From Escherichia coli (lineage in GTDB: Bacteria > Pseudomonadota > Gammaproteobacteria > Enterobacterales > Enterobacteriaceae): DNA of 64,000 bases. Positions 44,198 through 45,036 of the stretch are shown here, piece after piece. The notes beneath the pieces are model-generated. The model had not been told where the DNA came from. It made no database searches and saw nothing but the letters and a program-made list of their open reading frames with translations. Positions within the stretch are counted from its first letter, which is position 1. The number at the start of each line of letters is the position of its first letter. The position numbers and the translations under genes are program-made. The stretch lies in NCBI RefSeq assembly GCF_003334785.1, contig NZ_QOWV01000011.1; one strand, given 5' to 3'.

Positions 44198-44920
44198 CTG
44201 AAAGGCCCCTTCACGGTCAATGTGTGGATCATTAGCATTGGCCCTGCGACTACTGATTTTAACATCTAGGGAAACGTAGCTGATGTTTGGCTTCGATAAG
44301 ATTCTGTAGCACCGCCTCAGTGGGGTTGTCAGAACATTCCGCTGCCGCCTTAAGAATATCGCTTACTAGAGATGAAACTGGTTGATTGTAATCCCGGTCG
44401 ACCGTTACTCTATGTTTATCCGGATAATTTTGGCGTACACATTAAGTGAAGAAAACTTCAAAGTGATTTGAAACAGATGTTGTATTCACTGGCTCATTTA
44501 CATTAACTTGAGTGTTGTTCAGCACATGTTGAAACGCAGCTGTAAGGAAGATGATACAGCCAAGATGTATCCTTCATTATGGGGATTGGCGCGATGACCA
44601 CCACGGCTTAGCCCGATTGATTATTTGGAAATTGATTAGAATGCATAATCTGGGCTGAGCTCACTTAAAGTCTCTAATGTTTGACTTGGAGATTTGGGGG
44701 GCAGTGGCTTTCAGTTTTGTTAACTCTAACATCTGGTTTACGTTCCTTTTGGAACAAGAAGCAGAGGTCTGCTAAGTAATGGTTGTACTGCTTGTGATAG
44801 GTATGACTGCATGTTCAGCGAGCAAGAATGGCTTAAAAGTTCTGTTACTGAGCACCCCATGAAGTTAGAACGATGTCATAACGTGCACGTAACCGTTGAA
44901 CTGTTCTCTTACAGATAATC

Positions 44921-44959
44921 TCTACATAGCTATTATTGCTTAGGCGGTAGCTATGTAGA
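44921..44959. promoter_or_regulatory. 12-bp perfect inverted repeat upstream of the NTPase operon
   Basis: tctacatagcta N15 tagctatgtaga, ~80 bp upstream of the ATG at 45037. Confidence 0.45.
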
Positions 44960-45036
44960 TGGTTTTTGTAATATTATATTAAAAGTTCATACAGCGACTA
45001 TAGCATCATTGCGAAAAATATCAGGAGGTGAGTTTA

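Follow-up and report, generated by a model that had tools for sequence, protein, structure and literature searches.

A probable recombination scar with a restriction-gene remnant and a lineage-specific hairpin upstream of a NACHT and RelA/SpoT gene pair in Escherichia coli

The region described here belongs to a 64,000-nucleotide stretch of Escherichia coli DNA (contig NZ_QOWV01000011.1 of assembly GCF_003334785.1), which will be called the window. In it, a decayed restriction-type gene on the minus strand is followed, on the plus strand, by two genes encoding a NACHT protein and a RelA/SpoT-domain protein. The interval between them, 44198-45036, had been described in a sequence-only reading of the window as an 840-bp spacer. 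Its length is 839 bp and no ORF of 60 or more amino acids lies inside it; approximately 355 bp of it are pseudogene. Three parts can be distinguished, namely the pseudogene, which reaches 44552, an orphan segment from 44553 to 44775, and the leader of the gene pair, from 44776 to 45036. The features to which this report refers are as follows.

43885-44552, minus strand: pseudogene remnant of a DUF4928 (PF16280) gene, type II restriction-endonuclease-like, from collinearity with the metagenome locus L004, tblastn, Pfam and the PGAP annotation.
43925-44197, minus strand: 90-aa ORF, an internal fragment of the pseudogene and not an intact gene, with a PADLOC REase_II match.
43935/43936, minus strand: site of a 40-bp deletion with respect to L004, from gapped blastn, by which the frame is shifted and a premature stop is made at 43925-43927.
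44266/44267, minus strand: +1 insertion (frameshift), seen as a single-base gap against L004 and as a change of the tblastn frame from -1 to -3 between 44266 and 44268.
44439-44441, minus strand: nonsense codon TAA where L004 has CAA (Gln).
44550-44557, no strand: 5' truncation junction; homology to L004 stops at 44552, and in other strains IS3 lies at the same place (TAC duplication at 44555-44557).
44553-44775, no strand: orphan segment, roughly 220 bp long with a GC content of about 42%, with no match anywhere searched.
44776-45036, plus strand: native leader, with the putative promoter, of the NACHT and RelA/SpoT genes, from homology to the DNA upstream of orthologous gene pairs.
44921-44959, plus strand: perfect 12-bp inverted repeat with a 15-nt loop, read directly from the sequence, the core of a hairpin that can be extended to 44909-44971.
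44960-44969, plus strand: U-rich tract TGGTTTTTGT directly past the stem, read from the sequence, so that the hairpin resembles an intrinsic terminator on this strand.
44969-44977, plus strand: candidate -10 region, TAATAT/TATTAT, within a conserved alignment block (TATTAT in Citrobacter, TATAAT in Morganellaceae).
45023-45039, plus strand: Shine-Dalgarno sequence AGGAGG at 45023-45028 with the NACHT start codon, ATG, at 45037, in a block, GGTGAGTTTAATG, conserved across relatives; PGAP places the start at the same codon.
45037-47142, plus strand: gene for an NA-iREase2-NACHT-pentapeptide protein (Pfam NA-iREase2, 3.2e-33; weak NACHT and pentapeptide matches).
47142-48047, plus strand: gene for a RelA/SpoT-domain protein (Pfam RelA_SpoT, 7.8e-15).

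The minus-strand gene is best understood by comparison with L004, a metagenome locus with which window positions 43300-44552 are collinear at 84% identity. The order of genes at this locus is DNA_methylase (PF00145), DUF4928, hypothetical proteins, an ankyrin protein, a MobC-like protein and a relaxase, and its DUF4928 gene is nearly full length and itself frameshifted once. With respect to this gene, the copy in the window has four lesions: the 40-bp deletion at 43935/43936, the +1 insertion at about 44266, the TAA codon at 44439-44441, and the abrupt end of homology at 44552. A tblastn search with the L004 protein finds the DUF4928 pieces of the window in three frames. The sequence-only reading had noted the 90-aa ORF, which is indeed present in the ORF listing, and had taken its frame to stay open up to about 44420. 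In fact the frame is open only to 44362, with stops at 44363-44368 and 44405-44407, and the degraded gene extends in another frame, past the +1 frameshift near 44266, to about 44552.

That a degraded gene lies here was nonetheless a correct suggestion, as it agrees with the DUF4928 match of the conceptual translation, with the REase_II match in PADLOC, and with the pseudogene annotation made by PGAP. The search for homologues of the putative remnant returned proteins that all carry PF16280. When the reading frame of 43937-44552 is repaired conceptually, its translation aligns with Pfam DUF4928 (1.1e-66) from model position 104 to 287 of 306, so that approximately 100 N-terminal residues, those before model position 104, are missing. 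The 90-aa ORF taken by itself matches REase_II, a type II restriction endonuclease model, at 7.5e-42 over profile positions 214-301 of 331. Its C-terminus reads ARLIHLL before the stop, whereas the homologues read ARLIRTYNVRI and run on past the position of the stop in the window; the departure occurs at the 40-bp deletion. The original C-terminus, WIVNLLTDS, can still be read in another frame at 43885-43911 by tblastn with the L004 protein.

In tblastx comparisons of 43300-45300 and of 44500-44920 with L004, neither the DUF4928 N-terminus nor the methyltransferase left a trace to the right of 44552, and nothing matched beyond 44552-44586. The likeness to decayed restriction-modification modules, in which DUF4928 (PF16280) is paired with a C5-cytosine methyltransferase, is therefore partial. 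The match to the family HMM is strong, and L004 keeps the restriction endonuclease beside a PF00145 methylase in the same synteny; in contrast, the window keeps only model positions 104-287, in three frames and with a nonsense codon, and it has neither an intact ORF of about 300-330 aa nor an adjacent cognate DNA methyltransferase. In restriction-modification systems, a restriction gene that has lost its methylase is expected to be inactivated. The DUF4928 copy is a dead remnant and no working restriction-modification system. A search of PDB sequences with the reconstructed protein gave no match, and a literature search on DUF4928 returned only an unrelated mention.

The same DNA is found in other E. 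coli strains. Window positions 43700-45100 occur at 99% identity or more in 62 of the 5,426 complete E. coli genomes, always on the chromosome and usually once, and in no plasmid of the plasmid search. In strain 300709, where the region is part of an island beside ypjA, the order of genes is relaxase, MobC-like protein, ankyrin protein, hypothetical protein, DUF4928, NACHT protein, RelA/SpoT, two ParB-like genes, a recombinase and integrases. The RefSeq/PGAP annotation of this strain lists a "DUF4928 family protein" as a 98-aa CDS, together with a second fragment that is flagged as a pseudogene. Both DUF4928 fragments are already annotated by RefSeq in those 62 complete genomes.

In addition, the stretch has been a frequent target of insertion sequences. 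An ISVsa5 (IS10-like) in strain RM10410 lies inside the right arm of the inverted repeat, with a 9-bp duplication of 44949-44957, and an IS2 in the Res13 pig isolates is inserted inside the same arm at 44949-44953. The IS3 with the TAC duplication lies 3-5 bp from the homology boundary at 44552, and in seven genomes an IS3 is found after 44275, with all the DNA to its right lost. The copy in Enterobacter, discussed below, ends in an IS3-family transposase at window position 44138. At least four independent IS insertions have struck the stretch in other strains, and insertion at four sites shows it to be dispensable scar DNA. The spacer itself is not similar to any of the IS elements of these strains.

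Regarding the plus-strand genes, 1,630 relatives of the NACHT protein were recovered at E ≤ 1e-10. In the contexts of seven of these relatives, a RelA_SpoT-domain gene always follows the NACHT gene, but what else lies nearby differs. Citrobacter, Pectobacterium and metagenome loci have integrases, Morganellaceae have Fic and RHS genes, one metagenome locus has dehydrogenases, and a plasmid contig carries a resolvase together with an IncFII RepA. The gap upstream is as short as 70-240 bp in some relatives, and no regulator gene was found in or beside the pair in any context examined. The pair is a mobile two-gene cassette. No PADLOC v2 model matches the NACHT protein, and no paper was found by a literature search for "NA-iREase" together with NACHT. 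The closest known systems are the bNACHT/STAND NTPase anti-phage cassettes (Kibby et al., bioRxiv 10.1101/2022.07.19.500537), which likewise combine a NACHT-module protein having an N-terminal effector-type domain with a second gene, in a unit that moves with a short leader among defence islands, integrative elements and plasmids; the present observation bears on the leader of the cassette and not on its proteins.

How far the cassette extends upstream of its first gene can be judged from the orthologous loci. Homology to the leader of Citrobacter telavivensis is clear back to 44872 and weak, but collinear, to about 44776; to the three Morganellaceae leaders it reaches back only to 44964, and to Pectobacterium and one further relative (L013) only to 45027. 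A short block, TGTAATATTATAT (44967-44979), is common to E. coli, Citrobacter (TGTATTATCATAT) and Morganellaceae (TGTATAATTATAT), and is proposed as the candidate -10 of the cassette promoter; it was not called by a consensus promoter scan. Promoter-like matches in the region are at the level of shuffled sequences (4 found, 3.8 expected). A 35-codon ORF on the plus strand (44811-44918) was considered as a conserved small-protein gene and rejected, given that 1-nt indels break it in Citrobacter.

Between the pseudogene and this leader lies the orphan segment. No match was obtained for 44553-44775 by blastn or tblastx against L004, the cassette relatives or the rest of the window, by distant blastn against plasmids and phages, by Rfam, or with its longest stop-to-stop segments (at least 22 aa) against NCBIfam and PHROGs. 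Its divergence from the Enterobacter copy, 2.2%, is the same as that of the remaining spacer. With these negative results, the segment is unassignable filler. Taken together with the pseudogene, these observations make us highly confident that the region is a mosaic joint, or recombination scar, on an integrative or mobilisable E. coli island, rather than a dedicated regulatory spacer.

The leader contains the most distinctive element of the joint. The inverted repeat reported by the sequence-only reading, tctacatagcta N15 tagctatgtaga, lies exactly at 44921-44959, and its distance from the gene, given as about 80 bp, is close to the real one, as the repeat is separated by 77 bp from the ATG at 45037 and by 68 bp from an in-frame GTG at 45028. 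The left arm is TCTACATAGCTA (44921-44932) and the right arm TAGCTATGTAGA (44948-44959); when mismatches are allowed, the arms grow to 24 nt, 44909-44932 and 44948-44971. Inverted repeats with perfect arms of at least 12 bp and a loop of 3-30 nt were counted in the sequence and in 200 dinucleotide-preserving shuffles. The spacer has one where 0.0018 are expected, and the whole 64-kb window has three distinct ones where 0.185 are expected. Another perfect 12-bp repeat is located at 48064-48095, 17 bp past the RelA/SpoT stop.

As RNA, the 39-nt core folds at -19.4 kcal/mol (z = -5.5), and its 81-nt plus-strand context at -27.8 kcal/mol (z = -6.4), against -19.1 kcal/mol for the minus strand. The hairpin has no match in Rfam 15 (43000-46000, both strands, E ≤ 1). 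It is not a dispersed repeat of the REP, ERIC or MITE type either, being found at one place per E. coli genome, and at two only where an IS splits the region. The 12-mer half-sites are not enriched in the window (5 found, 3.6 expected), and no flanking direct repeats were found around the inverted repeat.

The conservation of the repeat is narrow. The copies in E. coli and in E. coli-like metagenomes are all identical and thus uninformative, as are the six contigs, all 99.8-100% E. coli-like, recovered by a metagenome scan with the conserved 23-mer of the Shine-Dalgarno and start region. A scan for both arms with any loop of 5-30 nt, in one genome per species and about 100,000 genomes, found a single true relative, in Enterobacter sichuanensis, besides two unrelated hairpins with other loops, in Methylophaga and in a Clostridia MAG. 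Since 100,000 genomes contain so many hairpins, the latter two were judged to be chance. The Enterobacter copy is 98.2% identical over window positions 44138-48761 and carries the same joint of pseudogene, orphan segment and leader. Its arms are intact, and the only two differences within the 39 bp are both in the loop, 44939 C>T and 44944 G>A. These two positions pair with each other atop the hairpin predicted for the window, so that the changes convert a C-G pair into U-A.

As support for the structure, the paired changes are suggestive but weak. They count for less because the minimum-energy fold of the Enterobacter sequence uses different apical pairs, and because template-switch mutation in quasi-palindromes could give both perfect arms and paired changes without selection. 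Beyond these near-identical copies, just one more distant orthologous leader, that of Citrobacter telavivensis, can still be aligned across the repeat; it keeps about 7 of the 12 arm positions, as a degenerate proto-repeat that folds no better than its shuffles (z = -0.6). In the orthologous leaders of Morganellaceae, Pectobacterium, the plasmid contig and the metagenome relatives, there is no repeat or hairpin at that position. It follows that the cassette works without the hairpin, as all orthologous leaders beyond the copies of 98-100% identity lack it. The conservation test of the inverted repeat thus failed, the repeat being kept only in near-identical E. coli and Enterobacter copies, and the function proposed by the sequence-only reading, an operator or a terminator insulating the operon, was not established, even though the repeat is real and folds strongly.

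Our best guess on the role of the hairpin, a tentative one that stays somewhat short of an even chance, is that it acts as an insulator which resembles an intrinsic terminator, is specific to this lineage and sits immediately before the cassette promoter. It resembles Rho-independent terminators used as insulators in that a non-random and stable stem-loop is followed at once, 1 nt past the stem, by a U-run, UGGUUUUUGU. Moreover, the order of stem, U-run and candidate promoter fits this role, the plus strand has the stronger fold, the element is neither a dispersed repeat nor an Rfam family, and the similar perfect hairpin just past the RelA/SpoT stop, which closes the operon, suggests that such hairpins mark transcript ends here. 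It differs from them in having an AT-rich stem, with 4 G-C pairs of 12, and a partly structured loop of 15 nt, while in canonical terminators the stem is rich in G+C and the loop has 3-8 nt. It was not listed by a consensus terminator scan, because its loop exceeds the limit of 8 nt set in that scan. Further points against an insulator are that there is no co-directional gene or convincing promoter upstream from which transcripts would arrive, the leftward neighbours being all on the minus strand, that the promoter position is itself a prediction, and that the hairpin is missing from every orthologous leader beyond the near-identical copies.

Almost as likely, and held at roughly one third of our belief, is that the hairpin has no function, and that template-switch mutation perfected a neutral quasi-palindrome in fast-evolving and dispensable leader DNA. 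The narrow conservation agrees with this, with the degenerate repeat of Citrobacter as its nearest counterpart, and so do the divergence of the spacer from the Enterobacter copy, 2.1% against about 1.2% for the NACHT gene, the IS2 and IS10-like insertions that extant strains carry inside the right arm, and the occurrence of the same arms in two unrelated genomes, at about the rate expected for hairpins generally. Neutrality is harder to reconcile with the expected count of 0.0018 perfect repeats in the spacer, with arms that stayed intact in Enterobacter while the loop took two substitutions, and with the suggestive position of the stem and U-run next to a -10-like block.

A more active role has also been considered, in which the hairpin would be a recently evolved cis-regulatory device that restrains a potentially toxic cassette, either as an insulator-terminator or as a structure or palindrome bound by the inactive-restriction-endonuclease domain of the NACHT protein, and in which the IS2 and IS10-like insertions into the right arm would have been selected for rewiring expression. 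We consider it unlikely.

An operator, on whose two arms a dimeric DNA-binding protein would repress or activate the promoter of the NACHT operon, is slightly less probable still. The repeat has the perfect dyad symmetry of the palindromic operators of HTH repressors and lies near a candidate promoter, its right arm falling at the expected -35 place. Two promoter-like matches overlap the arms, a weak CTTACA N17 TATTAT on the plus strand (44908-44936) and another on the minus strand, and the N-terminal domain of the NACHT protein could in principle bind DNA. Unlike those operators, it has a 15-bp spacer between the arms. The centres of its half-sites are separated by 27 bp, or about 2.6 helical turns, which places them on opposite faces of the helix and is atypical for dimeric operators. 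No cognate regulator gene lies in or beside the cassette in any context, the half-sites are unenriched, and the promoter-like matches are at shuffle level. As the hairpin is absent in Citrobacter, Morganellaceae, Pectobacterium and the other relatives, there is no conserved operator at the orthologous promoters. The geometry, with a 15-nt loop, half-site centres 27 bp apart and a U-run, favours a terminator-like hairpin over an operator, as does the lack of a regulator gene.

To a similar, marginally lower degree, it is improbable that the hairpin is an RNA element, either a stem-loop in the 5'-UTR of the NACHT mRNA, with the promoter further upstream, or the terminator of an unannotated gene for a small RNA or peptide. 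The stronger fold of the plus strand would suit such an element, as would the weak promoter-like site at 44908-44936 and the 35-codon ORF, which ends 2 nt before the stem; this ORF is, however, the one that indels break in Citrobacter, no Rfam family matches, no conserved promoter lies upstream of the hairpin, and relatives with merely 70-240 bp upstream still carry the cassette. Finally, the idea that the repeat is a mobile-element end or recombination site (a MITE, an IS terminal repeat or a recombinase target) could be based on its place in a mosaic joint, on the insertion of both IS2 and ISVsa5 at 44949-44957, and on the serine recombinase and integrases elsewhere on the island, but it is largely refuted, as the repeat occurs as a single copy per genome, has no flanking direct repeats, does not resemble the ends of the IS elements of this region, and lies about 145 bp inside the Citrobacter-homologous segment, away from any homology boundary.

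With the insulator-type hairpin as the preferred reading, the history of the joint can be told as follows. A rearrangement at about 44552 took away the first 100 or so codons of DUF4928 together with the methyltransferase, and what was left of DUF4928 then decayed by the nonsense codon, the +1 frameshift and the 40-bp deletion. The leader, 44776-45036, travelled together with the two-gene NACHT and RelA/SpoT cassette, its promoter being presumably within the last 75 bp or so. In the E. coli/Enterobacter lineage, the stem-loop and its U-run, which abut the -35 position of this promoter, may act as an insulator similar to a Rho-independent terminator, and would block rightward read-through from the scar and its IS elements into a potentially toxic cassette. 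For this account as a whole, with the pseudogene, the filler, the cassette leader and the insulator-type hairpin all included, the chances are a little better than even.

The feature itself is ordinary: a remnant of a restriction gene that was already annotated, and a recombination scar, before a mobile cassette of defence type, with a hairpin that is real and lineage-specific. Its significance beyond annotation is little. In these E. coli genomes, the "DUF4928 family protein" of 98 aa, which has the status of an ordinary CDS in RefSeq, is one piece of a dead restriction gene that reaches about 44552, and the true upstream control region of the NACHT and RelA/SpoT cassette is at most the last 260 bp or so, and probably the last 75 bp or so. 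Those who clone the cassette with its native promoter should consider that the hairpin is lineage-specific and that natural strains carry IS2 or IS10-like insertions between the hairpin and the gene. If the hairpin is indeed an insulator, it would illustrate, on a small scale, the transcriptional isolation of island modules that have recently been joined.

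At least four independent insertion sequence (IS) events are found within approximately 700 bp (44275-44957) of the spacer and the adjoining DUF4928 pseudogene among the ~62 E. coli carriers of the region (in other strains, at loci L002, L003, L014, and L024), and two of them fall inside the right arm of the perfect inverted repeat that precedes the NACHT gene. The insertions are the following:

44949-44957, ISVsa5, inside the right arm of the inverted repeat, with a 9-bp duplication
44949-44953, IS2, inside the right arm of the inverted repeat
44555-44557, IS3, with a TAC duplication, in strains VTB96935v and OZ547226
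after 44275, IS3, with the NACHT side deleted, in 7 genomes

In addition, the Enterobacter copy of the region (L016) has an IS3-family transposase beyond the position equivalent to 44138. The IS3 site at 44555-44557 lies only 3-5 bp from the point (44552) at which homology to the metagenomic restriction-modification locus L004 ends, a proximity with a chance of roughly 1% for an 840-bp spacer, and it may represent either a shared hot spot or the trace of an earlier IS-mediated deletion.

Locus L004, which belongs to a related island, retains, at its positions 4477-6597, a C5 DNA methylase gene and a nearly full-length DUF4928 gene, which adjoin the same ankyrin/MobC/relaxase module as in the window; each of the two genes is split into two ORFs, by a frameshift or an assembly error. 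In the window, the 98-aa "DUF4928 family protein" WP_077249404.1 (43925-44221), entered in RefSeq as an ordinary CDS and apparently starting at a non-standard ATT (44219-44221), is a piece of the DUF4928 pseudogene and would be better flagged there as a pseudogene fragment. To the left of this remnant, the stretch 43300-43702 is very AT-rich, with a GC content of 18-25% around 43300-43500, and contains one further reading frame:

43346-43702, TTG-start ORF of 118 codons

Where E. coli genomes carry the identical sequence, PGAP annotates no equivalent of this ORF, which is probably not a gene; the stretch without genes in front of the NACHT operon would then really measure about 1.7 kb.

Two other perfect 12-bp inverted repeats occur in the window:

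48064-48095, TTAAGTAGGCCT N8 AGGCCTACTTAA, beginning 17 bp past the RelA/SpoT stop codon, probably the operon terminator of the cassette
56069-56097, third perfect 12-bp inverted repeat

The RelA/SpoT gene itself is an intact 301-codon ORF (47142-48047). In strain 300709 (L001, 15443-16348) the annotation splits it into two short CDSs of 264 and 381 bp, and for this reason the effector gene appears to be broken in some carriers.

The genes for the NA-iREase2-NACHT-pentapeptide protein and the RelA/SpoT-domain protein stay together as a conserved cassette of two genes (45037-48047 and loci L007-L013 and L025-L028), whose neighbours include integrases and RHS/Fic genes, with one copy on an IncFII plasmid contig. 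The NACHT protein matches none of the PADLOC v2 models, and the RelA/SpoT protein gives only a weak PDC-S33 match among them. The cassette may be an uncharacterised defence system with an alarmone-synthetase-type effector.
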